Shown here: positions 9,982-54,749 of the stretch, one piece after another
Layout: each line of letters begins with the position of its first letter
How positions within the stretch are numbered: position 1 is the first letter of the stretch
NCBI GenBank assembly: GCA_963739515.1
Contig: CAVUAO010000003.1
Coordinates: 912,387 to 976,386 of the forward strand
Direction of reading: 5' to 3'
DNA: 64,000 bases
Source: an uncultured Chloroflexia bacterium
GTDB taxonomy: Bacteria > Chloroflexota > Dehalococcoidia > Dehalococcoidales > RBG-16-60-22
The notes under the pieces: generated by a model
Seen by the model: only the letters and a program-made list of their open reading frames with translations
Told to the model about the DNA's origin: nothing
Databases searched by the model: none
Made by a program: the position numbers and the translations under genes

Positions 9982-10485
9982 ATGAACTACACAAAATATG
10001 GGAGGTATTTTAAAACATACGAGGCAAAACCGGAGGAGATAGAACGCGGGCGTACCGGTATTGTACGTGTGGATCACAATGCCTTTGAAGGATGTAATTT
10101 CTACTGGGTCCACTGGAATCTTCCCCGAGCTGCTGGCCGCTCCGCTGATACTTCCGGCGTAGGACATCCACCCCATATACACAAGGATGCCGAAATCCTG
10201 ATGCTTATTGGCACAAACCCGGATGATCCGACTGATCTGGGGGCGGAGGTAGAATTACAAATGGGTCCGGAGAGGGAAAAACACACGATAACTAAGTCTA
10301 CAGCGGTCTATATCCCCCCGAATCTCATACACTGCCCATACATCATAAAAAGAACGGATAGACCGTGGATATTTATTGAAGTGAATCAAGGGCCTGTTCA
10401 TACTGAAAAATTATTCCCGCAGATATTAACAGAAGAAGAAAAAAAATCCGTAGACTGGTCCAGGTGGAAAGAAGAAGGTTATTAA
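9982..10485 (+). CDS. cupin-like protein of unknown function (paralogue family copy 1)
   Basis: MNYTKYGRYF...HPPHIHKDAEILMLIGTNPDDPTDLGAEVELQMG...AVYIPPNLIHCP. Paralogous to 17275-17733 and to both halves of 62287-63306. Start set at the ATG after AAAAGGGG. Confidence 0.65.
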   Translation: MNYTKYGRYFKTYEAKPEEIERGRTGIVRVDHNAFEGCNFYWVHWNLPRAAGRSADTSGVGHPPHIHKDAEILMLIGTNPDDPTDLGAEVELQMGPEREKHTITKSTAVYIPPNLIHCPYIIKRTDRPWIFIEVNQGPVHTEKLFPQILTEEEKKSVDWSRWKEEGY

Positions 10486-17205: not shown

Positions 17206-17248
17206 ATGGGGTTCAGAAGGTCGGCAGTTCAAATCTGCCCGCCCCGAC
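17206..17248 (+). repeat. attR-like direct repeat (orphan 3' half of tRNA-Pro)
   Basis: 43/43 identity with 5148-5190. No 5' half of a tRNA precedes it. Confidence 0.9.
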
Positions 17249-17274
17249 CATTTAAAAAAGGAAAGACGATAAAA

Positions 17275-17733
17275 ATGGCTAAAACGAAATATGGCAAGTA
17301 TTTCTTAAAAGAACCCTGGGGCATCATTCACCCGGGCACTCCTCCGGATGCCCCCGTATACATCGGGATTGGGCAGAGGGCTCCCGTAAAAGGATGGGAC
17401 GAGCCTCTTACCCAGGTCCTGCGCCCCATTTATCGACCCTATAAAATGATACCTGAAGGGCACCGGCATACCGTTGCCGAAATTCTGTATTTTATTGGCG
17501 GCGACCCCATGAATTTTAAAGAGTTCGGCGCTGAGGTCGAGTTCACGATTGGCGAGGGAGAAGAAGCGGAAACACACATCATCACCCACACGACCTGGGT
17601 GTATGTCCCGGGGAATCTCCTGCATTGTCCTCTCAATTTTAAGAGGGTAGATAAACCGATTATGTTCGGCCATATTATGTTTGCCCCCTCTTTTGATTCG
17701 ACCATCATCGGCAGAAATTTCACGAAACCATAA
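17275..17733 (+). CDS. cupin-like protein of unknown function (paralogue family copy 2)
   Basis: MAKTKYGKYF...HRHTVAEILYFIGGDPMNFKEFGAEVEFTIG...WVYVPGNLLHCP aligns with 9982-10485. The track start at 17206 lies in the tRNA fragment and was rejected. Confidence 0.7.
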   Translation: MAKTKYGKYFLKEPWGIIHPGTPPDAPVYIGIGQRAPVKGWDEPLTQVLRPIYRPYKMIPEGHRHTVAEILYFIGGDPMNFKEFGAEVEFTIGEGEEAETHIITHTTWVYVPGNLLHCPLNFKRVDKPIMFGHIMFAPSFDSTIIGRNFTKP

Positions 17734-18062: not shown

Positions 18063-18824
18063 ATGAGATGGGGCATGGTCATCAACCTGGCAAAATGCAC
18101 CCGCTGTCACGCCTGTGTCGCCGCCTGCCGTATTGAGCATTTCCTCCCCCTGGGCATGACCTGGCCGCGCCTTATCGCTTATGAAACCGATGTCCCCGGG
18201 CAGGAGCTCACCACGCTCCCCGTCCGCTGTAATCAGTGTAAAGAGGCCCCCTGCGTCGAGGTGTGCCCCGCCGAAGCCACCAAGAAACGCCCTGACGGTA
18301 TCGTCTACGTCGATAATAACAAATGCGTCGGCTGCCGCTACTGCGTGGTCGCCTGCCCCTACCAGAACCGCACTTTCTTCTCGCGCGATAAAGACCCCGG
18401 TTTCTTCCCGGGTTACGAACGGACGCGCTTTGAAAAAGTCGGCCGCAAGCTCTATCCCCATGTTGCCGGGACGACCGAAAAGTGCGATTTCTGCCTGGAA
18501 AGAATCGACGCGGGCATGGCTAAGGGACTGGTCCCCGGCAAAGACCGCGAGGCGACGCCGGCCTGTGTCAACACCTGCCAGGCCAGGGCTTTGACCTTCG
18601 GCGACCTGGACGACCCCAATTCTGAAGTGTCGCAGTTGATTAAAGAGAAAAACGCTTTTCAGCTTCATCCCGAGTATGGCACCGAACCTTCAGTCTACTA
18701 TATCGACGGCAAGATAGGCAACGCACCTTCCAATGTCGCCCCGCGGGAGGCACAGACCGCTTCGCACATGCAGCACCTCAGCACTATGGATGCCAGGGCG
18801 AAGCAGATTTTCGGGAAAAAGTAA
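18063..18824 (+). CDS. 4Fe-4S ferredoxin-type electron-transfer subunit of a molybdopterin oxidoreductase (DmsB/PsrB/NrfC family)
   Basis: MRWGMVINLAKCTRCHACVAAC, CNQCKEAPCVEVCP, CVGCRYCVVACP and CDFC cluster motifs. Confidence 0.85.
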   Translation: MRWGMVINLAKCTRCHACVAACRIEHFLPLGMTWPRLIAYETDVPGQELTTLPVRCNQCKEAPCVEVCPAEATKKRPDGIVYVDNNKCVGCRYCVVACPYQNRTFFSRDKDPGFFPGYERTRFEKVGRKLYPHVAGTTEKCDFCLERIDAGMAKGLVPGKDREATPACVNTCQARALTFGDLDDPNSEVSQLIKEKNAFQLHPEYGTEPSVYYIDGKIGNAPSNVAPREAQTASHMQHLSTMDARAKQIFGKK

Positions 18825-18836
18825 GGAGAGACGCAA

Positions 18837-19784
18837 ATGTCCCGGATGGCGACCCGCCAGTGGATGATCACCCACGAGTGGATGGTCAAGCCGATGCACC
18901 AGCGAGAGTGGATTGAAAGACGCGGCATCATGATCTGGATTGCCGAGACTTTCACCAGCTTGGGCTCGGGTTTATATCTCGTCTCTCTCTTCGTCAATAG
19001 CTGGTGGGGGCTGCTCGTGGGGTGGCTGATTATCATGTTCCTGAAGTTGCCCCTCCACCTGGCTTACTTCGGCAAGCCCTGGCGGTTCTATAGAACATTG
19101 CCGCCTTTTTCCAACGCCTGGAAGACGTCGTGGTTTGCCCGCGGCATTCTATTTTCCGTCTTTTTCGGCACTTTTGCCTTCATTCAACTGGTGTTCGGCC
19201 AGCCCGACCTGGCGAGACTGATGGGGCATTCGATTGCTGACCCGATTTATTATACCTTCGGCGTGCTGGCGGGTATCTTTGCCCTGGGGGTCGGCATTTA
19301 CGGCGGCTTCATCATGAATTACATTAAGGGGATTCCCTTCTGGAACCAGGGATTATTGCCCGTGGTGATTATACTGGCGGGGGTCGCCGATGGCTTCGGT
19401 CTGGCGATGGGGATTGGCCTGGCCGGGGGCGACGCCAGCGTAGCGTGGGCCGAGACCGGCAGTCGCTACCTGCTGTTAATTAACATGCTTTTAATCGTCA
19501 CTTATCTGATCAGCGCCGGATACACCTCGGCAGTGGCCAAGCTTTCCATCCGGGAGCTTCTCAAGGGGCCGTCGGCATATATGTTCTGGGGCGGACTGGT
19601 AATTCTCGGGTTGGCCGTACCGGCCGGGATTTCCGTGGTGAGTCTCTTCAGCACCGGGGAGGTCTCAAGCATTCTGTTGATTATCGCCATCGCTTCGCAT
19701 TCGCTGGGGGCCTTTGCCCTTAAATATTGCCTGTTAAAAGTGGGCATCTATCGGCCTTTATTGCCGAGAGTTGCCGCTTATTAA
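18837..19784 (+). CDS. NrfD/PsrC/DmsC-like integral membrane subunit
   Basis: 315 aa with about 8 hydrophobic helices. It sits between the Fe-S and catalytic subunits. Confidence 0.65.
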   Translation: MSRMATRQWMITHEWMVKPMHQREWIERRGIMIWIAETFTSLGSGLYLVSLFVNSWWGLLVGWLIIMFLKLPLHLAYFGKPWRFYRTLPPFSNAWKTSWFARGILFSVFFGTFAFIQLVFGQPDLARLMGHSIADPIYYTFGVLAGIFALGVGIYGGFIMNYIKGIPFWNQGLLPVVIILAGVADGFGLAMGIGLAGGDASVAWAETGSRYLLLINMLLIVTYLISAGYTSAVAKLSIRELLKGPSAYMFWGGLVILGLAVPAGISVVSLFSTGEVSSILLIIAIASHSLGAFALKYCLLKVGIYRPLLPRVAAY

Positions 19785-19815
19785 TGAATCATTAGCTTTC
19801 AATCTGGAGTTGTCA

Positions 19816-22014
19816 ATGACGGAAAAGAAAATTATAAAAACGACCTGTAAAAGCTGTCACGGAGGCTGTGGCGTCCTGGTCGAAGTGACCGACGGAGTAG
19901 TCACTCATATCGAAGGGAACCCGGATTCGACCACCCGCGGTACGATGTGCGCCAAGGGCTTATCCAGCATCCAGCATATCGATAACCCTTATCGCATCAC
20001 CCATCCTTATAAGAGGGCGGGCGAAAAAGGCGAAGGCAAATGGAAACAGATTAGCTGGGACGAAGCGCTGGACACGATTGCCGCCAAGATAAAAGAAGCC
20101 ACCGAAAAATACGGCGCGCATACCGTGGCCACTTCCCAGGGGACGGGTCGGGGCTATAACCGCTATACCCACCGCTTTTCCCGCTCGATGGGCTCCGCTA
20201 ACGTCATCTCGCCGGGCTATATCTGCCACAGTCCGCGCATCGGACTTTACGGCCTGATTACCGGCTACGGCCGGCTTTATTGCGACTATCACGGGTGGGG
20301 TGGGGTATTCCCCAAGACGCAGATTTCCTGGGCCAAGCAGCTCGAAATCAGCAGCGCCGATTCCGAGATGTGCTACTGGTACATGAAATCGCTGGACTAT
20401 GTTAAAAACCTCATCGTTATCGACCCGCGAGCCACCGCTTATACGTCACGGGCGACGCTCTGGCTGCAGCCACGGCCGGGCACGGATGCCGCCCTGGCGT
20501 TAGGTATGATAAACGTGATTATGCAGGAAGGCCTCTGGGACAAAGAATTCGTCGAGAACTGGACCTACGGCTTTGATAAACTTAAAGAGCGGGCAGCGGA
20601 ATACCCGGTGGAAAAAGTCGCTGAAATAACCTGGGTGCCGAAGGAAAAAATTATTCAGGCGGCCAGGCTTTTCGCCGTGGACACTCCCGGGTGCATCCAG
20701 ATTGGCAGCTCCCTGGAGCGGCAGGCCAACTGCGGCCAGACCCTGAGGGCGATTATCGACCTGCTGGGCATCACCGGCAATATCGAAAGGCCGGGCAGCA
20801 TGGTGAGCTGGGTGCTGCCGGAGACCGGCCTCATCGAGGATGTCTTCAATGAAATCCCGATTACCGATGAGATGAGGTCACATATCTACGGCGGCGATAG
20901 ATTCAAGATGGGTGCGGCGCGCACCTGTAATCCCGATACCATCGTGCGGATGTTTAATAATGGGGAGAAACCCATCCGCGTCTGGATAAGCGTCGGCGGC
21001 CAGCAAATCGTCCACATGGCCTCTACCAATCAGGTGGTGGAGGCCCTGAAAAAGGTCGATTTCATGGTGCAGCTCGACCAGTTCTGGGGCCCGATGGCGG
21101 AAATGTCGGATATCGTCCTACCCGCGGCGCACTGGCTGGAAATCGACGATATTTACGATATGCACCCGCGCTGGTTTATCGAGGCCCACGTTAAATGCGT
21201 CGACCCGCCCGGCGAGGCCAAGTCCGACGCCTGGATTTTTAACGAAATCGGGCGGCGGGCCGCTCCCAAGTACTGGTTCAAAGACGTCCCGACCCTGCTC
21301 GATTACGAGTTGAGAAAAGCCCCGCTTTCCTGGAAGGAGTTCAGCGAGAAAATCATTTCCGGATGCTTCGGGCCCGACCAGGTCTATTATAAATACAAGA
21401 CCGACTACTGGCGTAAGGGGGGCGGTTTCCCCTCACCAACCGGCAAGATGGAGCTTTACTCCACGGTGCTGGAAAACCTGGGGTACGACCCGCTGCCTTA
21501 CTTCGAGGAGCCCGGCGAGAGCCCCGTTTCCACTCCCGAGCTGGCCAAGGAATATCCGCTGGTGCTTACCTCCGGCTTCCGCTCGCCGTTCTATTTTCTG
21601 GCGCAATACCGCAATATCCCCTGGCTGCGCAGCTTCATGGAATATCCCGCGATGCAGATAAACCCGGAAACGGCCAAAAAGCTGGGTATCGAAGATGGCG
21701 ATTTCGTCTGGATAGAGTCGCCGCGCGGCCGCATTATCCAGAAAGCCAGGTTGTTCCCGGGCATCGACCCGAGGGTCGTGGCGGCTACGGCCAACTGGTT
21801 TTACCCGGAGGCGCCGGCTCAGGGTTTCCGTGGCGTGTTTATCTCCAATCCCAACGTCCTGACCGACAATAACCACCAGGACCCCATGTACGGCTCACCG
21901 GACCTGACCTGCCTGCTGTGCAAGGTCTACAAGTGCACTCCGGAGGAGCTGAAGGACCCGCAGTATGCGGGGATTTTCACCAAGGAGCATGGGGGCAAGC
22001 CGTGGGCACGGTAA
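19816..22014 (+). CDS. molybdopterin (bis-MGD) oxidoreductase catalytic subunit, no Tat signal
   Basis: MTEKKIIKTTCKSCHGGCGVLVEV...MCAKG is the N-terminal CxxCxxxC...C Fe-S motif of MopB enzymes. Start set at ATG 19816 after GGAG. No twin-arginine leader is present in either candidate N-terminus. Confidence 0.85.
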   Translation: MTEKKIIKTTCKSCHGGCGVLVEVTDGVVTHIEGNPDSTTRGTMCAKGLSSIQHIDNPYRITHPYKRAGEKGEGKWKQISWDEALDTIAAKIKEATEKYGAHTVATSQGTGRGYNRYTHRFSRSMGSANVISPGYICHSPRIGLYGLITGYGRLYCDYHGWGGVFPKTQISWAKQLEISSADSEMCYWYMKSLDYVKNLIVIDPRATAYTSRATLWLQPRPGTDAALALGMINVIMQEGLWDKEFVENWTYGFDKLKERAAEYPVEKVAEITWVPKEKIIQAARLFAVDTPGCIQIGSSLERQANCGQTLRAIIDLLGITGNIERPGSMVSWVLPETGLIEDVFNEIPITDEMRSHIYGGDRFKMGAARTCNPDTIVRMFNNGEKPIRVWISVGGQQIVHMASTNQVVEALKKVDFMVQLDQFWGPMAEMSDIVLPAAHWLEIDDIYDMHPRWFIEAHVKCVDPPGEAKSDAWIFNEIGRRAAPKYWFKDVPTLLDYELRKAPLSWKEFSEKIISGCFGPDQVYYKYKTDYWRKGGGFPSPTGKMELYSTVLENLGYDPLPYFEEPGESPVSTPELAKEYPLVLTSGFRSPFYFLAQYRNIPWLRSFMEYPAMQINPETAKKLGIEDGDFVWIESPRGRIIQKARLFPGIDPRVVAATANWFYPEAPAQGFRGVFISNPNVLTDNNHQDPMYGSPDLTCLLCKVYKCTPEELKDPQYAGIFTKEHGGKPWAR

Positions 22015-23123
22015 ACAACCCCGAAATCATCTTCGACAGCACGAAGTTGGAGAACGTCGGGGCGCCGAAAAAAAAGACGTTGCCTGGTTACTACTTTCCC
22101 CTGATTATGGCGATTATTCTCGCCGAAGCGGTTATTCTGGGACTCATCCTGTTCAATAACTTTCCCCTCCACGCGTTCGAAGTCTATCCCTTCGCTAAGT
22201 ATGCTCCGTTCGTCAGCGCCAGCGACCTCACCCGGCTATCGGTGACCATCACCAAATGGATTTTCTTCCTGCTGACCGCGGGCGTCCTGATACCGACGAC
22301 TCTTATCATCATCCTGGAAGTTACCCGCCGCGTATTTATTTCCCGCAAAGGTGAAGTCAATGCCTGGGACGACGAGTTTTCCTGGCTGGATAAACTTGAC
22401 CGCGTGCCGAAGGTCCCCGCCGACGTAAAAGAGCGGGTGCAGGGCAATTACATCACCCGTTTCGATATCCACCAGCGCATCCAGCATTACCTTTTGATGA
22501 GCTCGTTTATCGTCCTGGCGGTAACCGGGATGTTAAGGGGGTTTCCTGACTGGCCGACTTTTCAGTGGTTTACCGGTATTTTCGGCGGTACCGATGTCTT
22601 GCGCCTGGTCCATGACGTCGCCGCCTTCGTCATGATTGCCGATGGCATTTATCACCTCGGTTATATCGGTTACGGATTTTTCGTCAAGCATAAATTTCCT
22701 TCGGCGATGATGCCCCGCCTGAAAGACCTGAAAGATATGATTCACACTTTCCTCTGGATATTCGGTTTACACAAGCACGAGCCGGCGTACGACCATTTCC
22801 AGTACGGCCAGAAAATTGACTACTGGGCGATATTCTGGGGCATGCCGGTGATGGTCATCACGGGCATTATCATGATGTTCCCCGTATTTTTCAGCCAGTG
22901 GGTCGGCGGTCAGTGGTTCGGGGTCTTAGCGGCCGCCCACCGCGATGAGGCGGTCCTGGCCATCGGCTTTATCCTCATCGTGCACATGTATTACGGCCAC
23001 CTCCAGACCACCGCCTTCCCCGTGAATACCGTGATGTTCACCGGCAAAATGCTGAAATCAAAATACAGGCAGTGGTTCGGCCGGGAGTACACGCAGATAA
23101 CGGACGAAAAAGAACAGGGATAA
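22002..23123 (+). CDS. membrane cytochrome-b-like subunit (FdnI/PhsC-like) with two extra N-terminal helices
   Basis: HQRIQHYLLMSSFIVLAVTG, VHDVAAF, IYHLGY and IVHMYYGH candidate haem-ligand histidines lie in TM helices. The start is uncertain; GTG 22002 overlaps the upstream stop. Confidence 0.6.
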   Translation: MGTVNNPEIIFDSTKLENVGAPKKKTLPGYYFPLIMAIILAEAVILGLILFNNFPLHAFEVYPFAKYAPFVSASDLTRLSVTITKWIFFLLTAGVLIPTTLIIILEVTRRVFISRKGEVNAWDDEFSWLDKLDRVPKVPADVKERVQGNYITRFDIHQRIQHYLLMSSFIVLAVTGMLRGFPDWPTFQWFTGIFGGTDVLRLVHDVAAFVMIADGIYHLGYIGYGFFVKHKFPSAMMPRLKDLKDMIHTFLWIFGLHKHEPAYDHFQYGQKIDYWAIFWGMPVMVITGIIMMFPVFFSQWVGGQWFGVLAAAHRDEAVLAIGFILIVHMYYGHLQTTAFPVNTVMFTGKMLKSKYRQWFGREYTQITDEKEQG

Positions 23124-24758: not shown

Positions 24759-25703
24759 TTACCAGTCCGGCGGGCCCGGCGTGGTCTGCCGCTCGTAGAG
24801 TGGATTATAAGCTAATGTCCCCATCTTTTTGATAATATCGCGACGTTTCTCGTTCGGGGGCTCGTCCGGGATAGCCCGGATAAGCGCTTCATTACGGGCG
24901 ATATAGCCTTCCCTGAACTCGGGATGGGTGTGGATAAAGAGGTCGTTACGCCTGATGCCCCGCACCACCCGCTCGCCGGTTTCCACGGGGTCCATGAACA
25001 CGGAAAAATCGAACATCGGCCGCCGCATCGGCTGACCGTCTTTGGGGGGAGGGGGCGGTTGGGGCGGCCAGGTCTGCCCCTCGTTCCGGAGATGGGCGGG
25101 GCGGTTAGCGAAAGTGGATGGGCCCAGGTTAGTCATGGTCGGTCCGGGGATAAGCACCGAGGCCCCCACGTTAGTTCCCTGCAGGTCCCCCGCCAGCGTT
25201 TCCATCATGCCGGTGATGGCGTATTTGGTCATGTTGTATATAATGCAGCCGTTGACCGCGAAAAAGCCGGCTGTGGAAGAGGTGGCGACCACGTGGCCGC
25301 CTTCCCCGTGCTTTAAAATACGCGGGAGGATTATCACGAGTCCGTTGGCGACGCCGGTGATATTGACGCCGATGCTGAAATCCCAGTCCTTGAAGGTCAT
25401 GTTCCACGCCGGCCCGCCGGAAGCCACACCGGCGTTATTGACCAGCACGTGTATCTTCTTAAAAACAGCTTCCGCTTCGTCCGCGGCTTTGGTGTAGGCA
25501 GCGCGGTCGGTCACGTCCAGCTTAATCGGGTGGACGGACTGGCCGGTCTTTTTAAAAAAAGCCATCGTTTCGTCCAGGGCATCCTGGCGCGAGTCCGCGA
25601 TAACGACCTTCATGCCGTATTTGGCGCAGGCTTTGGCAATGCCCAGCCCGATGCCGCTGGCGCCGCCGGTAATAAAAGCTGTTTTTCCTTCAATATTCTC
25701 CAT
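24759..25703 (-). CDS. short-chain dehydrogenase/reductase with long C-terminal extension (paralogue 1)
   Basis: TAFITGGASGIGLGIA, NNAG and YNMTK motifs. The proline-rich stretch PPQPPPPPKDGQP is followed by a conserved tail ending PGPPDW. Confidence 0.85.
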   Translation of the reverse strand: MENIEGKTAFITGGASGIGLGIAKACAKYGMKVVIADSRQDALDETMAFFKKTGQSVHPIKLDVTDRAAYTKAADEAEAVFKKIHVLVNNAGVASGGPAWNMTFKDWDFSIGVNITGVANGLVIILPRILKHGEGGHVVATSSTAGFFAVNGCIIYNMTKYAITGMMETLAGDLQGTNVGASVLIPGPTMTNLGPSTFANRPAHLRNEGQTWPPQPPPPPKDGQPMRRPMFDFSVFMDPVETGERVVRGIRRNDLFIHTHPEFREGYIARNEALIRAIPDEPPNEKRRDIIKKMGTLAYNPLYERQTTPGPPDW

Positions 25704-25734: not shown

Positions 25735-26691
25735 TTACCAGTCGGGCGGGCCTACCTTTTGCTGTTTATCATAAATGTCATTATAGATAATCGTCCCGAA
25801 AGTCTTGATGACCTCCCACCTTTTTTCATTCCGGGGTTCTTCCGGGATGGCCCGGATAATGGCCTCGTGACGCGCGATGTAGCCTTCCCGCCACTCGGGG
25901 TGGGTGTGGATGTAGAGGTCATTGTTCCGGATGCCCCGCACCACCCGCTCGCCGGTCTCGTCCGGGTTCATGAACACCTGCCTGACCTCCTCGATCGGCC
26001 GTCGCGGCCGGTCTCTCATGCCCGGCGGTGGATTGGCGGGCATTTTCGGCGGCCAGGTGTCTCCCGGGTTTCTCAGGTGGGCGGGGCGGTTCTCAAAGGA
26101 TGACTGGCCCAGATTGGAAACCGTCGGCCCGGGGAACAGTATCGAGACCCCGATGTTCTTGTCCTGGAGCTCGGTAGCGAGGCATTCCATCATGCCGATG
26201 ACCGCGTACTTGCCCGTGCAGTAGATGGTAAAGCCGAGCGAGCCCATCAGGCCGCACGTCGAGGAGGTGGTGACGACGTGGCCGCCTTCGCCGTGCTTAA
26301 TAATGCGCGGCACAATCGTCATGATGCCGTTCACCACGCCGCCGACGTTAACGCTCAGGCTGTAGTCCCAGTCCTTATAGTCCAGGTTATCAATCGTGCC
26401 GCCGGGCGTGCCTACGCCGGCGTTATTGACCAGCACGTGTATCTTCCCGAACATTTTCTCCGCTTCATCGGCGGCTTTGACGTATGCCTCGCGGTCGGTC
26501 ACGTTCAGCTTTAAAGGTCGGACTGACTTCTCCTTGCCTTTGAAATAAGCCATCGCTTCATCGAGGGCGTTCTGCCGCGCATCGACGATAATCACTTTCA
26601 TGCCCTGCCTGGCGCACGCCTTGGCGATGCCCAGCCCGATGCCGCTGGCGCCGCCCGTGATAAAAGCCACTTTGCCTTTTAAGTCCTTCAT
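25735..26691 (-). CDS. short-chain dehydrogenase/reductase with long C-terminal extension (paralogue 2)
   Basis: VAFITGGASGIGLGIA, NNAG and YCTGK motifs. It has the same tail ending VGPPDW and is a tandem paralogue of 24759-25703. Confidence 0.85.
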   Translation of the reverse strand: MKDLKGKVAFITGGASGIGLGIAKACARQGMKVIIVDARQNALDEAMAYFKGKEKSVRPLKLNVTDREAYVKAADEAEKMFGKIHVLVNNAGVGTPGGTIDNLDYKDWDYSLSVNVGGVVNGIMTIVPRIIKHGEGGHVVTTSSTCGLMGSLGFTIYCTGKYAVIGMMECLATELQDKNIGVSILFPGPTVSNLGQSSFENRPAHLRNPGDTWPPKMPANPPPGMRDRPRRPIEEVRQVFMNPDETGERVVRGIRNNDLYIHTHPEWREGYIARHEAIIRAIPEEPRNEKRWEVIKTFGTIIYNDIYDKQQKVGPPDW

Positions 26692-26719: not shown

Positions 26720-28411
26720 CTAATGGCCGATGCCGCAGGAGCCGTCTTTACAGACGATCGCTTCCGGCATGCGCAGCGGCTTCGCATCGAGTTTGATGCC
26801 GGCTTTGGGTATCCAGGGGTCGATGGGGACGGACTGGAAATAAGCGAAATCGGTCGTGACCCACATGGGGTTCATTTCACCGCCGACGACGATAAAGTTG
26901 ACTCCCTCCGGCCGCTTGAAACGGAAATTCGCCTCGTTCACGAGCCACTCGCTGAGCTTGAGCGGGTCATCCCAGCCTTCCCTTTTCAGGCTCTTGGCGA
27001 CGAGGGGGTCGATAACGAAGGTAAACGAGCCGCCGAAAGGACCGCCGATATTTTTCATTACTTCCAGCATCCGCTGGAGCGGGCCGGTGTTGAAGCCGAG
27101 GACGTTCCAGCCCCGGAAAAGGCTCACGACGTTTTCGCCCGCCTTGAAGCCCTTGCGCACGTGGAAAGGCGGCCAGACGCTGTTCTCTTCGTTCTCGGCG
27201 AAGCACATGTTGTTGTAGTTGATGGTCGTTCCGGTGCTGGCGGTGAACGTTGCCCCCGGCCGGACGTCCCCGAAGTTAATGCTCATCAGCGTCCAGGCCC
27301 GGCCGATAACGGCATTGGCGTAGTTGATGGGGCTCAGGGCGCCCAGTCCGCCGTTCATGCCGATGATATTGCGGATGGGGCCGTTCACCACCATCATGCT
27401 CGCAAAGGAGGTAGTCGAGCTGGGCATGGAAGGTCGCCCCGAGGCGCCTAATGCCAGGAGAACCGGGAGGTGCTCCGGCCGGCAGCCGGCCATGACGGCG
27501 ATAGCGGCGACCCTTTCCACCGTATACTGGAGTCGCTCTTCGTGAGTGGTTACGGACATCATGCCGACGTACTCATCGGGTTTGCGGTCGGTGCCGGTGA
27601 GCATCTCGGCCACGCGCTCTTCGGTGGGCAGGATGATCGGCAGGCCGTCCGTCCAGCCTTTTTCCAGGAAAAGCCGGTGCAGGCTAGCTTCGGTATCCGG
27701 CTCGAGGAGGCGCGGTCGGGTCGGTCGCTTTACCGGTTTGTAGTTCTTCTCCTCGACCGTCAGTGGCTGGGTGAGGGCAAAAAGAACCTCATCCATGAGG
27801 GGCGCGCCGGAAACGGGGTCGTTGCCCTCGACATAGCCGTAAAGTATTTCCTTGGGAATAAAGCCGACGGGGTAGGGAGGGAAGCTCCAGCGCAGGTTCA
27901 TGCCGTGGCTGCGTCCGTCCCGCTGGACATAGTCCGCGAAGCGCGCGGTGACGATGGGGGCCGTCGGCACGCCGTAATCGCTTTCCATGGTCCGGGCGAA
28001 CTCGGCGATACTCGCCGAACAGCCGTCTCAGCCGCCCACGCCGAAGACAACGGCGTCACCGTTTTTCTTGATTTCCGCCCAGAGCTCGGGTTCGTCGGTG
28101 AACATGCTGGACTTCTTGTGGCGCAGCACCGTCTTGATGTCCGGCCGGTGGCGGGCAAACCAGCCCTCGACCTCTTCCATGAACTCTTTACCGCCGGCGA
28201 ACCCCGTGTTAACCAGGTAAACGGTCTTGCCTTGCAGTTTATCGAGGCGCGGCGCCATCTTCAGGGCGCCCAATGCCTCGGCGGTGTCCCTCGGCTGGTA
28301 TGTCGGGTCATGAATCGCGAACATCGGCGAATCGGCATCGAGACGCCGCCCGAAAATGCCGGTGGGCTGACCGCCCGGGTCGAGCACCGCTATTTTTCCG
28401 TTCTTTTTCAT
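26720..28411 (-). CDS. candidate selenoprotein: UxxC redox domain fused to an uncharacterised ~350-aa domain, read through TGA 28028-28030
   Basis: Track ORFs 28028-28411 and 26720-27988 share strand and frame and are separated by a single TGA. The junction reads ...VVFGVGG-U-DGCSASIAEFARTMESDYGVPT. There is no SD before ATG 27988. A SECIS-like hairpin lies 9 nt after the TGA. Confidence 0.6.
28002..28018 (-). promoter_or_regulatory. SECIS-like stem-loop downstream of in-frame UGA
   Basis: The mRNA has UCGGCGA-GUA-UCGCCGA, a perfect 7-bp stem. It can be extended by G-U pairs and GGC/GCC. The apical loop starts with G, 16 nt after the UGA. Confidence 0.5.
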
Positions 28412-28598
28412 ATCTTTCCCCTTTCGATATGTCGTAATATACCGTATTTCTCATATCATAAGATAAAATAAGTGCCCAGTTCAAGTTGATATTACCAAAG
28501 TTTTTGGCCCGACTTGCGCGGCAGGCTCGATTAACTCTAATATATTTATGGGTGCGTTAATTCACCGTAAAAAGAGCCAACAGGAAGGATTTGCGCGC

Positions 28599-29810
28599 AT
28601 GAATACGGGAGCACTTGACGGCTTAAAGGTCCTGGAGTTCAGCGATTTTATTTCCGGGCCATATGGCGGCAAAATGCTGGCCGACCTTGGTGCCGGGGTC
28701 ATCAAGATAGAGAAGCCCGTCTCCGGCGATAAAGCCAGGCAATGGGGGCCTTTCCCGGGGAATATACCGCACCCGGAGAAGAGCGGCCTCTTTCTCTTTT
28801 TGAACGCGAACAAGCGGGGGATTACCCTGAACGTTGCCGGCGGGCCGGGACGGGAGATATTCCGTCGACTGGCCGGTTGGGCGGACGTGCTTATCGAAAG
28901 TCAGCCGCGCCGGGAAATGGCAAAAATAGGGTTAACCTACCCGACTTTGAAAAAGTTGAACCCTTCTCTGATTATGACCTCCATATCCCCGTTCGGGGAG
29001 ACGGGTCCCTATAAAGACTATAAAGGCTCCGACCTGATTAACTCCCATATGAGCAGCGAGGCATTCGGCAACCCGACGGAGGGTGTGAATGACCTGGAGC
29101 GTTATTACCCGCTGCGGGGGCCGATGCAGGCCGCCGATTTCATGACCGGCCTGACCGCGGCGGTGTGCACCATGTCCGCGATAGTAGGGCGGCGAAAAAA
29201 TAAGGTCGGCCGGCATATCGACATCTCCGCCCAGGAAGCGCTGGCCTCGGTGGAACGGCAGGAACTCGCCTTCTGCCTGTGCGAGGGGCTTTGCCCCACC
29301 CGGCAGGTGGGCCGGAAGCGCGTCGGCGGGTTTTTATACCAGTGTAAAGACGGCTACGTCTGCATCTGGATCGGGCCGCACTGGCAGAAACTCGTGACGA
29401 TGATGGGCAAACCGGACTGGACGGAGGCCGAGCTCTTCAAGAATCCGGCCCTGCGCTCCGAGCACCAGCAGGACTGTAATAAGCTTATCGAGCTGTGGAC
29501 GATGCAATACACAATGGATGAAATCGATCGTCTCGGCATGGAATTCGATGTGCCTCTAGCGCCGGTGCGTACCGTGAAAGAGGTCGCCAACGACGTGCAG
29601 CTAGCCTACCGCAACTATTTTGCCGAGATCGACCACCCGGTGGCCGGGCGGCTCAAATACCCCGGCGCGCCTTACAAGCTGTCGGCGACGCCCTGGGAGG
29701 TCAAGCGCCCCGCCCCGCTGCTGGGCGAGCATAATGACGAAGTGTATGGCCAGATTCTTGGATACAGTCGGAAGGATATAGCAGGACTTAAACAGGCGGG
29801 CATAATATAA
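28599..29810 (+). CDS. family III CoA-transferase subunit (CaiB/BaiF/BbsE-F-like)
   Basis: LKVLEFSDFISGPYGGKMLADLGAGVIKIEKP. Start set at ATG 28599 (MNTGALDG) after AGGAAGGA. Confidence 0.85.
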   Translation: MNTGALDGLKVLEFSDFISGPYGGKMLADLGAGVIKIEKPVSGDKARQWGPFPGNIPHPEKSGLFLFLNANKRGITLNVAGGPGREIFRRLAGWADVLIESQPRREMAKIGLTYPTLKKLNPSLIMTSISPFGETGPYKDYKGSDLINSHMSSEAFGNPTEGVNDLERYYPLRGPMQAADFMTGLTAAVCTMSAIVGRRKNKVGRHIDISAQEALASVERQELAFCLCEGLCPTRQVGRKRVGGFLYQCKDGYVCIWIGPHWQKLVTMMGKPDWTEAELFKNPALRSEHQQDCNKLIELWTMQYTMDEIDRLGMEFDVPLAPVRTVKEVANDVQLAYRNYFAEIDHPVAGRLKYPGAPYKLSATPWEVKRPAPLLGEHNDEVYGQILGYSRKDIAGLKQAGII

Positions 29811-29834
29811 AGGGAAAAATCGGAGAGAATTATC

Positions 29835-31055
29835 ATGCATAAATTACCTCTGGCGGGTATCAGGATTACGGATTTCGGGCAGATGTGGGCCGGGCCTCAC
29901 CTTTCGCAGTGGCTGGCGGTCATGGGGGCGGAAGTCATTAAAGTGGAAACCCACCTGAGGATAGATTTTATGAGGATGATCGGCATTCCGCCGGGACTGA
30001 GGAGGGACGATTTCAACGCGGGGACGGCTTTCGCTTCGCTGAACTACGGTAAAAAGAGCGTTACCCTGAACATGAACGAGCCGAGGGCGCAGGAGCTTGC
30101 CAAAAAAATGGTAAAAATAAGCGACGTTGTCACGGAGAATTTCGGCGGGAATATTCTCGAGCGTTGGGGGCTGGGTTACGAGGAGATGAAAAAAATAAAG
30201 CCGGATATTATCTACTATGCCGGCTCGGGCTACGGGCGGAGCGGGCCTCATCAGTCGCGGCCGTCTTACGCGGAAATCGTGGAGGCATACGACGGCTCGA
30301 CGTATCTGAATGGCTACCCCGGCGGCGGGCCGGCGACGGTCGGGGTGTCCCCCTGGACGGACGCCACCCAGGCGATGCACGGCGCCTTTGCGATTATGGC
30401 GGCGCTATATCATCGCGACCTGACCGGGGAGGGACAATATATCGACGCCGCCATGATTGAGGGGAGCAGCAACTTCCTCGGCGAGGTGGTGATGGGCTAC
30501 GCGATGAACGGCGCCCTGGGAGAGCGGATGGGCAATCGAGATAAGTTCATGGCGCCGCACGGCTGCTATCGCTGCCAGGGAAACGACGCGTGGGTCGCCA
30601 TCGCGGTGGACGGCGAGGCGGCCTGGCAGGCTTTCGTCAAAGCCATCGGCAGCCCGGAATGGACTCAAAGAAAAGAGTTCAAAAACGAGGTAAGTCGACG
30701 GCAAAACCAGGATGAGCTTGACCGGCTCGTGGAAGAATGGACGCGCGAACATCACCAGTATGAGGTCATGGAGCTGCTGCAAAAAGCGGGGGTGGCGGCC
30801 GGGGCTTCGCTGAATATCAAAGACCTCGTCAGCGACCCGCAGCTCAAGGCGCGGCAGTTCTTTGTCGAGACGGAACACCCGGTGCTGGGGAACATCACCC
30901 TGGCGGGTCTGCCCTGGAGGCCGGAAGGCCGGCAAAAAGGCAATTATACCTGCCCGCCGCTGCTCGGGGAGCATAACGACTATGTCTTCGGGGAGCTGCT
31001 GGGCTTGAGCGCTGAAGAAATCGCCAGTCTTAAAGAAGCGAAGGTAATTTACTAG
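29835..31055 (+). CDS. family III CoA-transferase subunit (second, divergent partner)
   Basis: IRITDFGQMWAGPHLSQWLAVMGAEVIKVET. It starts 25 nt after the first subunit. Confidence 0.85.
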   Translation: MHKLPLAGIRITDFGQMWAGPHLSQWLAVMGAEVIKVETHLRIDFMRMIGIPPGLRRDDFNAGTAFASLNYGKKSVTLNMNEPRAQELAKKMVKISDVVTENFGGNILERWGLGYEEMKKIKPDIIYYAGSGYGRSGPHQSRPSYAEIVEAYDGSTYLNGYPGGGPATVGVSPWTDATQAMHGAFAIMAALYHRDLTGEGQYIDAAMIEGSSNFLGEVVMGYAMNGALGERMGNRDKFMAPHGCYRCQGNDAWVAIAVDGEAAWQAFVKAIGSPEWTQRKEFKNEVSRRQNQDELDRLVEEWTREHHQYEVMELLQKAGVAAGASLNIKDLVSDPQLKARQFFVETEHPVLGNITLAGLPWRPEGRQKGNYTCPPLLGEHNDYVFGELLGLSAEEIASLKEAKVIY

Positions 31056-31592: not shown

Positions 31593-32444
31593 CTAAATCA
31601 TGTCCCGGGCAATCAGGGCGGCGCCGATAGCTCCTGCCAGCATGGGGTCGAACTCGCTGGTGAGGGCCGTCATCTTCATCTCTCTTTCGATGCGTTTCAC
31701 GATGCCGGGATTCTTCGCCAGGCCGCCGGTGAAGGCGATTTCCTTTTCCGGCAATATCCGGCCGATAGTGCCGTGAAGCCTCCAGGCGATGGTGAAAAGG
31801 TAGGCCGCCAGCACCTGGCTCTCCGTGTAGCCCTCCCGGAACAGCCCCATAGCCTCGGTATTGGCGAAGGCGTAGCAGGTGGTGCTCACCGGTTCCGGGT
31901 CTTTTTCCACCGTCAGCGACCTGGCGCCCATCTCCTGGATCGGCACCTGCATGAGGTCGGCCATGGTCTCGATGCTGCGTCCAAAGCCGTCGGCGCATTT
32001 ATCGTTCATCTGGAAGTCGCGTATCCTGTCCCAGCCGTACAGGCGGATAACTTTGCAGGTCTGCGCGCCCAGGTCGACCACCGTCCTGATAGAAGGCCCG
32101 AACATCAAGCGGGCGCCCCGCGCGTGGCAGCTGATTTCGTCGACGGTTTTACCGGCGAAAGAGATATTGCGGCTGCCCCAGCCGGTGCCCGCGATAGACT
32201 TAATGTCTTTGAGCTTCATCCCGGACTTCCCCAGCGCCCGCCTCACCGCTTCATCGGCGTTTTTGCTGTAGTCCGGCCCGTTACGGAGGCTGGCATAGCC
32301 GAACAATTTGTCATCACATAAGATGGCCGCTTGAGTGCTGTTGCTGCCCACGTCCACACCCGCGGTAATGTTTTTACATTTCTTCCAGTCGATATCCGTA
32401 GCCGTCCCGGCGGACTCCGGCCATTGCCAATATTCCTCTGTCAT
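31593..32444 (-). CDS. BadF/BadG/BcrA/BcrD-type ATPase subunit (BcrA/BzdQ-like)
   Basis: ITAGVDVGSNSTQAAIL...DLGAQTCKVI...NDKCADGFGRSIE acetate/sugar-kinase-fold ATPase with the Fe-S bridging Cys context. Confidence 0.8.
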   Translation of the reverse strand: MTEEYWQWPESAGTATDIDWKKCKNITAGVDVGSNSTQAAILCDDKLFGYASLRNGPDYSKNADEAVRRALGKSGMKLKDIKSIAGTGWGSRNISFAGKTVDEISCHARGARLMFGPSIRTVVDLGAQTCKVIRLYGWDRIRDFQMNDKCADGFGRSIETMADLMQVPIQEMGARSLTVEKDPEPVSTTCYAFANTEAMGLFREGYTESQVLAAYLFTIAWRLHGTIGRILPEKEIAFTGGLAKNPGIVKRIEREMKMTALTSEFDPMLAGAIGAALIARDMI

Positions 32445-32475
32445 TTGTTTGCCTCCAGCAGTAGTTCTTCGAACC

Positions 32476-33267
32476 TTAGCCCGCCGCTATCCCTTCGACT
32501 TCGCTCAGGGCAAGCAGGGCGGCGCCCAGCGCCCCGGCGTACTCCGCCTGCTCGGGAACCAGGAAAGCCACCCCCGACCGTTTCTTCAACGCATTGACCA
32601 CCGCCTGGTTCCGGCACAAGCCGCCGACCAGCACCGTGGCGTTTTTATCGGGATTAAATTTATCGTGGAGAATCGAGTTAAGCCGGACGGCTACCGCTTC
32701 GGCTACCGCCCGGGCGATATCTCCCCGGGGGACATTGCGGTTCAAAAGCCCGATGGCGTCCATCTCGGCGAAAACGCTGCAGCCGTCATTGACCAGCACC
32801 TCGCCGTTGCCGGAGACGCGGCCCATCTCTTCCAGCGTCATCCCCAGCGTCCGCGCCATGGACTTAAGCAGGATGCCCAGTCCGGCGGCGCATTTCTGGT
32901 TCATGACCACTTCCGTGATTTTGTCCTGCGGCCCCAGGGCCACGACGCGCACCTGGTCGGCGCCGGCGTCCATGACGCAGGTGGCTTCAGGATACAGGAA
33001 CCGGGCCGCCCGGGCGTCCGCCACAGGTTCAACAACGCGGTCGCGGGCAAAGCTGACGTCGGCCTTGCCCTGCCCGGTCGCGACGATATTATCGATATCG
33101 GAGGGAGTCAGTTTGGCCGCCGCCAGCGCCTTCTTCCAGGCCTGCTCGGCGGACTTCGCCCGGTTCGCCCCTCCCGATAATGCCGTCCCCCGGCCGACGA
33201 CTTTACCGTCCTTCAAAATCACCGCTTTAACGTTTTCTATCCCTACATCTATGCCGGCCGTGATCAT
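32476..33267 (-). CDS. BadF/BadG/BcrA/BcrD-type ATPase subunit (BcrD/BzdP/HgdC-like)
   Basis: MITAGIDVGIENVKAVIL...DAGADQVRVV...NQKCAAGLGILLK. Confidence 0.8.
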   Translation of the reverse strand: MITAGIDVGIENVKAVILKDGKVVGRGTALSGGANRAKSAEQAWKKALAAAKLTPSDIDNIVATGQGKADVSFARDRVVEPVADARAARFLYPEATCVMDAGADQVRVVALGPQDKITEVVMNQKCAAGLGILLKSMARTLGMTLEEMGRVSGNGEVLVNDGCSVFAEMDAIGLLNRNVPRGDIARAVAEAVAVRLNSILHDKFNPDKNATVLVGGLCRNQAVVNALKKRSGVAFLVPEQAEYAGALGAALLALSEVEGIAAG

Positions 33268-33276
33268 ATCAGCCTC

Positions 33277-34602
33277 CTAGTCCTCAAGTTTCCTCAAGCC
33301 CTGGCTCTCCATCCAGACATCGAGCTGGTCCAGCAGGCGGTTTTCATCGAGGTCGGTGCGGTCGCCGGGCTGGGAACCTTCGTAATGCAGGACGCGCACG
33401 CCCATCTTGCTCAAGCGCAAGCCCTGCTCCTTGCGGGTCACCGTGCAGCCCACGCCGCAGCGCCATAAAGGCAGGATAGCCCCGTCCACTTTATAGGCTT
33501 TGGCGAAGTCGTCAAGCGCCCAGGGACGGATGACCTCGTCATCCTTGAATCGGTGGCCCCGCGCTTCAGTACCGATCATCATGCGGATGGCATCTTCCCT
33601 TGTCTTGATAGGTCGATTGTCTACCGCCCTCCCCCCGAAACCGCCGCCGCGGAAACGCGGACCCCAGGTGCCGTCCTTTTTAAGCTCGAAAGGACCGGCC
33701 ATCATGTGACTGTACTGCGAGCCGACACAGACCGCCCCGTATTTCTCCATATAGCGGTAGTATTTCAGGAAGTGCCAGGGCGGCGGGTGGGTCTCCATCC
33801 AGCGGTACCTTTCATTGCCCACCGCGGCGATGTTATTCTGCACGCGCCACTCCACCTCGTCCCGCAACGCTTTCCAGATAGCCACCGTTTCGCCGGGGTC
33901 GCCCTTGGTGAGACCGCCGAGCGTGTAAAAGGAGTAGAGGTCCTTCTGGCTCAAGGGGGAGGGGATGTGCTGCATGAAACGGGAGACATCCTGCGCGTAC
34001 GGCGCAATGCCCCCGCTGATTTTCACGCTGTTGATGAACCTTTCGTCGTCGAACTTTTGCCCGAAAATCCTTTCGATTTCGGAGATGATATATAGAGTCG
34101 TATAGACCTTGTCCTCGATCATCGCTTTTTCACGGTCGACGTCCTGCGGGCCGGTGTAAAGAGCGTAGTTCTCCTGGAAGCGGGGGATAGGGGAATAGTC
34201 CATGGGCGCCTGGCCGCGTTTGGTATGCTGGTCGCACGGGTCCGAGAAAGGAATGACCAGGTCGCGGAACGGGAAAGGACTGCCGTCCTGCTGGTGCCCC
34301 AGGTACATGGCGCCCCAGCAGTTGAGCTGATAACCGCAGACTTCCCGCCCCCACCCCACGATCTCGCTATAGTACCGGGCGATGCGGGCAAACTCATCGC
34401 TCTTATTCGCCATCATCGCGCCCACGGGGTTATCCTCGATGACGCGCAGTGCTGGAAAGCCGATGCTCCACCCGACGTTGCCCTGTGCCAGCAGCACTTT
34501 TTCCGAGGAAGCGCTATCAATAGATTTCTGCCACTTCGCTCTCATTTCCTTGGCTTTGTTCCAGACTTCCAGGGGCCTGGTTTCCCATTTTGTTTTAGCC
34601 AT
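33277..34602 (-). CDS. benzoyl-CoA reductase / 2-hydroxyacyl-CoA dehydratase family catalytic subunit (BcrB/BzdO-like)
   Basis: 441 aa, starting MAKTKWETRPLEVWNKAKEMRAKW. Its size and its position second in a four-gene C-B-ATPase-ATPase arrangement fit this call. Confidence 0.7.
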   Translation of the reverse strand: MAKTKWETRPLEVWNKAKEMRAKWQKSIDSASSEKVLLAQGNVGWSIGFPALRVIEDNPVGAMMANKSDEFARIARYYSEIVGWGREVCGYQLNCWGAMYLGHQQDGSPFPFRDLVIPFSDPCDQHTKRGQAPMDYSPIPRFQENYALYTGPQDVDREKAMIEDKVYTTLYIISEIERIFGQKFDDERFINSVKISGGIAPYAQDVSRFMQHIPSPLSQKDLYSFYTLGGLTKGDPGETVAIWKALRDEVEWRVQNNIAAVGNERYRWMETHPPPWHFLKYYRYMEKYGAVCVGSQYSHMMAGPFELKKDGTWGPRFRGGGFGGRAVDNRPIKTREDAIRMMIGTEARGHRFKDDEVIRPWALDDFAKAYKVDGAILPLWRCGVGCTVTRKEQGLRLSKMGVRVLHYEGSQPGDRTDLDENRLLDQLDVWMESQGLRKLED

Positions 34603-34614
34603 AAGTGCCTCCGT

Positions 34615-35745
34615 TTATTTCAGCACCAGCTCCGGTTTCAGCATATTGATAAAGGCCTCCAGGCGCAGGCGGGTTTCTTCATACGGAAGGGTGGTATCGC
34701 GTTCAAAGTAATGGAAAGGGATGTTGCGCTCCCGGAGGATTTTCCAGATGAGCGTATTGTCCGAACCGTGAGGGTGGCAGTAAATCTGCTTGGCGATAAT
34801 GACGCCGTGAGCCTGGTAATCCTCATAAAGCTGGTAAATGTGGGCGGGACGCCGCCGCCAGTTATTGTCTTTCAGGGCGCAGTGGGGGCGGCCCAGGTAA
34901 CGCAGGGAAATAGCCATGAGGCGGTCGGGCTGGGGGATGACCTCGTTCCAGAAGTAGCAGCTGCCCGTGCAGACCTCGTCGATGACGACGTTTGCCCCCA
35001 GCTCTTCAACGAGTTTCTCCAGCGCTACGTCGGACGTGGGACTCCCGATAAGCATCAGGCGGACACCGGTATCGCGCCGGGGCTTCCGCGCCGCCAGTCC
35101 GGCGATAACATCTTTCAAAAGCTCGTTCATCTCGGCCTTGTCCATCACCTGGCTGGCCAGGACCATCTCCATCGCTTCCGAACCGAGGAGGACGGGACTA
35201 TCCGCCCGGCGCAGCTCGTAGACCTGGCGCATCAGGCGGCGGTTTTCGTTATAGATTTCTATGGCGCGGTCGAGGTCAGCGTCCGTAATAGGCTTGCCCG
35301 TCCATTTTTCCACCGCTTTTTTAAAGACATCCAGCTCCGAACGCATCAAATCCTTGGAAGTTTTCCCGTCAACGTAATCGGGGACGAAGACATAATGGTT
35401 AAATAACTCCGGCTGGCTGTTCAAAGTGGTCTGGAAGGCGTTGAGCATCCATTGACAGCCCTCGGCATTAATCAGTCCGTCGATATAATCGTAATGACCT
35501 TTAAGGAACTGGTTGAGGATATCACGCGAGCAGGCGCAGTTGCCGTACATCTGGCGGTCGGTGGCGTCATCCGGTTCATGCCGGCTCAAAAGGCGCACCG
35601 GTAGGGCGCCGGCGGCATAGACGATTTCCTCGGGCATGTAGGGCTCGTAATAGCCCAGGACTTTGCCGCCGGTCCGTTTTTTCCAGTCGCGCGCGTACTC
35701 ATGGCGGCCCTGTAAAATTTCGTGAAATCTTTCCAATTTCTTCAC
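34615..35745 (-). CDS. benzoyl-CoA reductase / 2-hydroxyacyl-CoA dehydratase family catalytic subunit (BcrC/BzdN/HgdB-like)
   Basis: ...WKKRTGGKVLGYYEPYMPEEIVYAAGALPVRL is typical of this family. The start is uncertain: the GTG at 35745 overlaps GGAGG, and the TTG at 35736 is better spaced. Confidence 0.75.
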   Translation of the reverse strand: MKKLERFHEILQGRHEYARDWKKRTGGKVLGYYEPYMPEEIVYAAGALPVRLLSRHEPDDATDRQMYGNCACSRDILNQFLKGHYDYIDGLINAEGCQWMLNAFQTTLNSQPELFNHYVFVPDYVDGKTSKDLMRSELDVFKKAVEKWTGKPITDADLDRAIEIYNENRRLMRQVYELRRADSPVLLGSEAMEMVLASQVMDKAEMNELLKDVIAGLAARKPRRDTGVRLMLIGSPTSDVALEKLVEELGANVVIDEVCTGSCYFWNEVIPQPDRLMAISLRYLGRPHCALKDNNWRRRPAHIYQLYEDYQAHGVIIAKQIYCHPHGSDNTLIWKILRERNIPFHYFERDTTLPYEETRLRLEAFINMLKPELVLK

Positions 35746-54716: not shown

Positions 54717-54749
54717 ATTTAGCTACATGAGACTGTGAAGGGGGACAAT

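Follow-up and report, generated by a model that had tools for sequence, protein, structure and literature searches.

Does the TGA triplet at positions 28030-28028 end one gene and precede another, or is it a sense codon within a single gene? The question is raised by a 64,000-nucleotide stretch of contig CAVUAO010000003.1 from an uncultured Chloroflexia bacterium (the whole of this stretch is referred to below as the window). On its minus strand, an open reading frame (ORF) of 127 aa, 28411..28028, terminates at this TGA. A second ORF of 422 aa, 27988..26720, lies in the identical frame, and the 39 nt separating the two are free of stops. Read-through of the TGA yields 563 codons (...VVFGVGG-U-DGCSASIAEFARTMESDYGVPTAPIVT...) with the motif U128-D-G-C131, where U is selenocysteine (Sec); the stretch spanning the TGA reads GVGG-U-DGCSASIAEFAR. 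An earlier reading of the letters alone (the sequence-only reading) had joined the two ORFs into one candidate selenoprotein, and its statements on the ORFs, their frame, the 39 nt, the UxxC motif, the Shine-Dalgarno sequence and the geometry of a hairpin after the UGA were all found to be correct on re-reading. The data presented here make it very likely that 26720-28411 (minus strand) constitutes one gene, encoding a selenoprotein of 563 residues, in which UGA128 is read as Sec with the aid of a bacterial Sec insertion sequence (bSECIS), and in which a UGSC domain is fused to a large C-terminal domain (C-domain). The elements of the gene are as follows.

26720..28411, minus strand: predicted complete selenoprotein gene, 563 codons plus a TAG stop, with the ATG at 28411-28409 and Sec at codon 128; tblastn matches residues 1-563 as a single stretch in many loci.
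28028..28030, minus strand: in-frame UGA, almost certainly coding for selenocysteine, U128 of U-D-G-C; TGA in 73 of 75 aligned loci and Cys in relatives.
28019..28021, minus strand: Cys131 (TGT), presumed to be the resolving cysteine in UxxC; Cys occurs at +3 in every listed TGA-carrying site.
28414..28424, minus strand: Shine-Dalgarno-like AAAGGGGAAAG, purine-rich, 6 nt from ATG 28411, read from the sequence.
28455..28484, minus strand: weak sigma-70-like promoter candidate upstream of the gene, TTGAAC-18-TATGAT, with 9 of 12 matches; the site count in the region is not above that of shuffles.

One genome per GTDB species was scanned for related loci, and 78 were obtained, 75 of which cover the TGA column. 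They come from Dehalococcoidales, Acidobacteriota, Desulfobacterota, Bacillota, Actinomycetota, Chloroflexia and Thermodesulfobacteriota. It is apparent that the TGA is strongly conserved, since 73 of the 75 loci have TGA at the aligned codon, in at least six phyla and down to approximately 37% protein identity; the other two loci (L069 and L077) have Leu at this column. Tandem paralogues, to approximately 37% identity, share the TGA, and counting them brings the number of TGA sites to 88. The motifs observed at these sites are UDGC, UPGC, UEAC, UEGC, USTC, USSC, USYC, UHGC, UIGC and UWGC. Orthologues from the Dehalococcoidales are 76-89% identical in amino acid sequence, with strong purifying selection on both halves of the gene.

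Relatives that carry a standard codon at this column were also found. The most informative is P0066, from a metagenome-assembled genome (MAG) of the Desulfobacteraceae, a single 599-aa protein with 62% identity over 99% of the query, which reads ...GVAG-C-DGCSAS... and therefore has CDGC in place of UDGC. Cys forms were likewise present among other full-length relatives, as CSTC (P0373, P0384 and P0392), CPGC (P0375) and CGSC (P0439). The sequence-only reading had suggested asking whether relatives have TGA or Cys at this position and whether the two halves are fused there. The answer supports one gene, with TGA in most relatives and Cys in P0066, where the halves form one polypeptide.

The read-through product also matches a known protein family across the TGA. 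Pfam PF24696 (UGSC) aligns with residues 33-189 at an E value of 4.9e-20 and 72.8 bits, against a cut-off of 25, whereas the NCBIfam equivalog NF041046 aligns with the same region at 48.2 bits, below its cut-off of 125. The proposal of a single selenoprotein gene thus gains support from the profile search, from the fused Cys homologue and from the conserved TGA.

27845..28315, minus strand: UGSC domain, alpha/beta, residues 33-189, from the PF24696 match and an AlphaFold2 (AF2) model.

The best surviving alternative is that two separate genes are present, translation of the first stopping at TGA 28030-28028 to leave a 127-aa UGSC-like fragment, and an independent 422-aa protein being initiated at ATG 27988. 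This arrangement agrees with the public gene calls, which consistently comprise "hypothetical proteins" of 125-135 aa and of 393-423 aa, and with the finding of no Sec machinery in the window. It is nevertheless very improbable. It would cut the Pfam domain mid-way, and a genuine stop would not have become fixed specifically as TGA in 88 sites that share the column but belong to different phyla. At the protein level the 39 nt taken as "intergenic" are conserved, coding in the orthologue comparison for DGCSASIAEF(A/S)RT, and those homologues that have Cys in place of the TGA are each one polypeptide. By inspection, no Shine-Dalgarno-like sequence precedes ATG 27988 (..GCCCGGACC-ATG), and the corresponding Met142 is Leu in many orthologues (TLEN), so that, judged from the alignment, it is no conserved start.

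The public annotations are themselves instructive. When the fused sequence was used as the query, hundreds of "hypothetical proteins" of 393-423 aa, each comprising the post-TGA part only, were retrieved, for the most part from MAGs of the Dehalococcoidales; the N-terminal ORF as query retrieved nothing but PF24696 fragments of 125-135 aa. Such a split gene is exemplified by WC370_03185 and WC370_03180, whose locus tags are adjacent. Because Met142 is often Leu in the orthologues, gene callers start at a later Met, giving 393-aa products. Public databases, in other words, split this gene systematically into two "hypothetical proteins".

If the UGA is translated, a signal for its decoding as Sec would be expected downstream. 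The hairpin in question was compared with the bSECIS consensus, which specifies a loop of 3-9 nt, G[G/U] in the loop, a spacing of 16-37 nt and a minimum free energy (MFE) of -7.5 or lower (PMC13188914).

28002..28018, minus strand: predicted bacterial SECIS hairpin UCGGCGA-GUA-UCGCCGA, 7 bp with a GUA loop; the stem starts 12 nt, and the loop G lies 16 nt, after the UGA.

The stem is extendable by a U-G pair at 28019/28001, and the hairpin is the MFE structure of the 35 nt from the UGA (-12.3 kcal/mol). It resembles bacterial SECIS elements of the fdhF type, as described by the bSECISearch model, in being a stem-loop within coding sequence after the UGA, with a small G-U loop, a distance of 16 nt and an MFE below -7.5 kcal/mol. 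It differs from them in its very short loop (3 nt) and in a spacing that is at the minimum of the model; a further difference is that the paralogues use a register shifted by 1-2 nt and a 4-nt GGUC or AGUU loop. An Rfam scan of the window returned one tRNA only and no generic bacterial SECIS match.

Comparative data for the hairpin were considerably more informative. Six core base pairs are paired in all 41 distinct orthologue sequences, with the register kept, and the loop is G-U-N without exception. Double changes were observed in five of the eight pairs, amounting to 13 cells (GC to AU, UA or CG), and none of 500 shuffles matched this. When the 3' arm was slid as a control, pairing was 19-51%, versus the 91.5% observed. 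The shifted hairpins of the paralogue classes contribute a further 41 double-change cells, again with 0 of 500 shuffles. In several cases, of which L006 (UCA...GCU) is one, the change is synonymous on both arms, so protein constraint alone does not explain the conservation of the stem. The forms without TGA serve as negative controls: the Cys form P0066 retains the outer stem only and has lost the GU loop, and neither Leu form has a hairpin. The SECIS-like element put forward in the sequence-only reading is thus sustained by covariation in both orthologues and paralogues and by its decay where the TGA is absent. On these comparative grounds the decoding of UGA128 as Sec via the hairpin can be considered largely shown; the hairpin (28018-28002) would recruit SelB and Sec-tRNA(Sec) to UGA128.

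Several observations weigh against this interpretation. The energy of the hairpin is no better than that of shuffles (z -1.07; 31 of 200 shuffles were as good), and a 71-nt window that includes upstream bases favours another fold (z -0.66). The folding check proposed earlier was therefore borne out only as regards the 35 nt from the UGA, of which the hairpin is the MFE structure, and not as regards its energy or the longer window. Since the single-sequence energy is unremarkable, support for the hairpin is taken from the comparative covariation. The stem, moreover, overlaps conserved codons (Ser-Ala-Ser-Ile-Ala-Glu), and part of its conservation is protein-driven. Neither tRNA-Sec nor selA, selB or selD was found by ARAGORN and motif scans in the 64-kb window or the 78 fetched loci, and Sec decoding in the source genome is for that reason a matter that we infer. 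The HdrA, MvhD and NiFe hydrogenase genes of the window have no in-frame TGA, though their products are selenoproteins elsewhere. Finally, a number of full-length relatives (P0364, P0367, P0381, P0382, P0404, P0422-P0425 and others) keep both domains and yet, lacking CxxC, carry Thr, Met, Ser, His or Gly in the Sec column; such relatives without Cys or Sec at this position indicate that the C-domain can work without the redox motif, which weakens the mechanism proposed below.

A SelD-like regular-expression match in L037 was discarded, as its frame contains stops. At the level of the class, support for Sec decoding is available from the literature: an isolate of Dehalogenimonas alkenigignens has selC, selA, selB and selD (PMC4918011), and Dehalococcoidia MAGs are among the bacterial genomes richest in selenoproteins, with 46-49 (PMC13326102).

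The comparative data require read-through, and the window contains no Sec machinery; both points would be compatible with translation of the UGA as Trp, Gly or Cys, a standard amino acid, by way of a variant code or general suppression. This is a shade less probable even than two separate genes. TGA terminates nine of the 45 long ORFs in the window, and a scan of the 64 kb for in-frame TGA produced no credible candidate other than that at 28030. These two results indicate the standard code and exclude a variant one. The same TGA is found, in addition, in six phyla with standard codes, relatives without TGA typically have Cys within CxxC, and the TGA is accompanied by a hairpin that covaries, has its G-U loop at the distance of a SECIS and decays where the TGA is replaced. 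One base change turns TGY into TGA, but a pseudogene, or a Cys codon (TGC/TGT) misread in sequencing or assembly, is effectively refuted: the same TGA is present in 73 assemblies that are independent of one another and in hundreds of clusters of the databases, and both halves are under purifying selection.

With Sec at codon 128 as the preferred assignment, the relationship of the product to known selenoproteins can be considered. UGSC-containing proteins are abundant environmental selenoproteins in the Sargasso Sea and Global Ocean Sampling (GOS) selenoproteomes (PMC2398784; reviewed in PMC13188914). Like the members of that family (NF041046; PF24696), the window protein has UxxC at the same place, mostly with Sec and rarely with Cys in homologues, and its function is undescribed. 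It differs in that its motif is U-D-G-C rather than a literal U-G-S-C, in that it comprises 563 aa and two domains as against the 147 positions of the NF041046 model, and in that public records consistently show genes of its type as two separate ORFs. Fused relatives reach 32-86 bits on NF041046. One of them, a 560-aa fused Cys form from Pseudonocardia (WP_358488424.1; 51.6 bits), is called "UGSC family (seleno)protein" by RefSeq. Judged by these profile scores, the window gene is a new, unannotated member of the known UGSC Pfam family that lies outside the NCBIfam equivalog, and it is distinguished by its UDGC motif, its fused architecture and its own SECIS variant.

The N-terminal domain was examined in an AF2 model of P0066, in which its predicted local distance difference test (pLDDT) values are 75-95. 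A strand at 153-158 is followed by a helix at 164-178; the Sec/Cys position lies in the loop after the beta-strand, and Cys131 at the N-terminus of the following helix. A Foldseek search with this domain gave only weak flavodoxin, CheY and lumazine-synthase-like matches (E of 2e-3 or higher) and no thioredoxin-fold match. A thioredoxin fold had been suggested for UGSC proteins in 2008 (PMC2398784), and the predicted structure does not confirm that proposal.

The remainder of the protein is less familiar.

26792..27724, minus strand: C-terminal conserved domain, approximately residues 230-540, with invariant columns; no Pfam, PDB or Foldseek relative.
26735..26752, minus strand: C-terminal tail Cys554-x4-Cys559, VCKDGSCGIGH, invariant in nine sequences including P0066.

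The C-domain, of approximately 370 residues, contains the conserved motifs GWTDGLPI-LPTEERV, AVMAG-RPEH, PSSTTSF, VVNGPIR, YNNMC-AENEE, FHV-KG and VVGGE. Searches with it gave nothing in Pfam at E<=10 and, by sequence profile, no relative in the PDB. A first AF2 model, built from a shallow alignment, had pLDDT below 50 in the C-domain; a second model of the C-domain reached a pLDDT of 79.8 and a predicted template-modelling score (pTM) of 0.76, and Foldseek with the latter returned nothing from the PDB at E<=1e-3. Matches to class I fumarate hydratase (TM 0.2) and to Toblerone-fold hydrolases were rejected as not credible. The data accordingly show a two-domain architecture, UGSC plus C-domain, in agreement with the earlier recognition of UGSC relatedness and of a fusion to a domain of approximately 350 aa without known function. 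The C554-x4-C559 pair is conserved in the UDGC orthologue group only, being absent from the consensus of distant paralogues, and could constitute a second redox relay.

Two further comparisons bear on the fusion. The first is with P0500 and P0511 from the Chloroflexota (P0500 representing a cluster of 177 members), in which an AhpC-TSA/Redoxin domain takes the place of the UGSC domain in front of the same C-domain. These "redoxin domain-containing proteins" share with the window protein the C-domain of approximately 370 aa and the presence of an N-terminal thiol-redox module; they differ in the thioredoxin fold and single C-P-T-T cysteine of that module, and are neither UGSC proteins nor selenoproteins. 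The swap of modules supports, as a Rosetta-stone hint, the role of the N-terminal domain as a thiol/selenol partner. The variants without the motif are a caution here, in that the C-domain may have an activity of its own. The second comparison is with a "UGSC/Unknown_1 fusion" depicted for GOS reads in Fig. S1A of Zhang & Gladyshev 2008 (PMC2398784), which likewise joins a UGSC selenoprotein domain to a conserved domain without assigned function. The motifs WTDGLP, PTEERV and GUDGC do not appear in the text of that article that was searched, and Unknown_1 may or may not be the same as the C-domain described here.

It was of interest to determine whether particular genes accompany the selenoprotein gene. 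Two genes for short-chain dehydrogenases/reductases (SDRs) follow it in the window.

25735..26691, minus strand: SDR 1, 318 aa, beginning 29 nt after the selenoprotein stop; adh_short at E 4e-48, best NCBIfam match PRK06194, below its cut-off.
24759..25703, minus strand: SDR 2, 314 aa, paralogous to SDR 1; its gene closes the apparent operon.

The selenoprotein gene thus appears to be co-transcribed, in an apparent operon, with two SDRs of approximately 315 aa, as the sequence-only reading had stated. SDRs of one cluster were found as 58 copies in 34 of 79 loci, usually adjacent and on the same strand, and were the only recurrent neighbour; the SDR lies mostly downstream of genes of the UDGC type and upstream of those of the UPGC type. 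The gene diverges, in the window, from two family III CoA-transferases, and on this basis a role in a CoA-ester pathway had also been suggested. That link did not hold up as a conserved one: homologues of the CoA-transferases occur in one of the 79 loci, and the neighbourhood is specific to the window. BzdNOPQ-like genes, which are also present in the window, had no qualifying match in any of the 79 related loci at the thresholds used.

The context of the gene for P0066 (L079 1-17800) is unlike that in the window, without an adjacent SDR. It lies among genes for HdrA-like, FlpD/MvhD, CCG-domain and molybdopterin oxidoreductase proteins, and adjoins a DUF1573 protein and an HGD-D gene. P0066 itself starts with a hydrophobic N-terminal segment that is absent from the window protein.

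A mechanism consistent with these features can be outlined. Sec128 and Cys131 would cycle between the selenol/thiol and selenenylsulfide states, and the C-domain would bind a small-molecule substrate, which the U-x-x-C centre would reduce or attack as a nucleophile. The substrate would be the compound that the SDR oxidises or reduces. GrdB and PrdB, of glycine and D-proline reductase, are UxxC selenoproteins of anaerobes in which Sec acts on a bound small molecule and a nearby Cys resolves the Se adduct. The likeness of the window protein to them, as a UxxC selenoprotein, is a mechanistic analogy only, and it differs from them in that partners such as GrdA, GrdE and PrdA are absent from the neighbourhood of its gene. 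PrdB has been listed among proteins with a UxxC motif (PMC2398784).

A more far-reaching proposal, which we regard as unlikely though deserving of mention, is that the fused UGSC plus C-domain proteins are a very large and essentially unannotated family of selenoenzymes with an undescribed catalytic fold, engaged in SDR-coupled bond cleavage. A dedicated SDR would first oxidise a hydroxyl group adjoining the bond to be broken (C-O, C-S or C-N); attack by the Sec selenolate would then cleave this bond reductively, and Cys131 would resolve the Se adduct. Anaerobic and independent of glutathione, such a system would be the counterpart of the beta-etherase logic of LigD/LigE/LigG or of the chemistry of glycine/proline reductase. 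If this were true, it would contribute to the unusually large selenoproteomes reported for the Dehalococcoidia.

The size of the family was estimated from cluster databases. At least 7,845 clusters at 90% identity were matched among 8,000 candidates scored, and at least 5,051 clusters at 50% identity in the representative library, 841 of them at E<=1e-30. Many loci have between two and six paralogues in tandem, as is typical of catabolic enzymes that have diversified in substrate. Arrays in which three to six paralogues are arranged in tandem or divergently were noted in L057, L074, L034, L027, L053 and L042-L044, from Acidobacteriota and Chloroflexia MAGs; in L042-L044, which were checked residue by residue, a separate TGA and hairpin accompany every copy. 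More than one locus came from several of the genomes, e.g. CAZPSP01, with L013, L018 and L070. The paralogue arrays may contribute to large selenoproteome counts.

Hundreds to thousands of clusters hold the gene as a PF24696 fragment of approximately 127 aa plus a "hypothetical protein" of 393-480 aa, and merging these fragments would correct the selenoproteome counts of Dehalococcoidia, Acidobacteriota and Desulfobacterota. The UGSC family has counted among the most abundant environmental selenoproteins since 2005-2008. The pairing with SDRs, the redoxin swap, the expansion of paralogues with varied U-x-x-C and a C-domain without a solved relative provide handles for a first biochemical test. 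The value of these results therefore lies in the repair of annotation and in the leads offered by the SDRs and the redoxin swap; current understanding is not overturned.

Several other genes of the window were also noted. A four-gene cluster at 31593-35745 (minus strand) resembles the bzd-type benzoyl-CoA reductase BzdNOPQ, with two HGD-D proteins and two BcrAD_BadFG ATPases that score below the NCBIfam equivalog cut-offs. It adjoins the two family III CoA-transferases, at 28548-31055 (plus strand), and may represent an ATP-dependent aryl- or alicyclic-CoA reductase system. An Hdr/Mvh-like electron-bifurcation cluster occupies 51372-59052 (plus strand); its members are an HdrA-like flavoprotein of 1114 aa, with additional Fer4 and Pyr_redox domains, HdrC-like and HdrB-like (CCG) proteins, MvhD (FlpD) and the small and large subunits of a NiFe hydrogenase, and no gene among them is broken by an in-frame TGA.

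The region 18063-23123 (plus strand) includes a molybdopterin oxidoreductase of 747 aa. A 4Fe-4S protein and a membrane subunit lie ahead of it, as judged by eye, and after it comes, with overlap, a cytochrome-b561-like ORF of 401 aa, 21918-23123 (plus strand), which a simple longest-ORF gene call dropped. The whole looks like a respiratory module of the complex-iron-sulfur-molybdoenzyme type. The 175-aa protein at 9952-10485 (plus strand) has no Pfam match. Homologues of this protein, of a second of approximately 175 aa at 17206-17733 (plus strand) and of a URO-D-like protein at 40459-41799 (minus strand) are situated near family members in five to six other loci, and these may be weakly associated catabolic genes.

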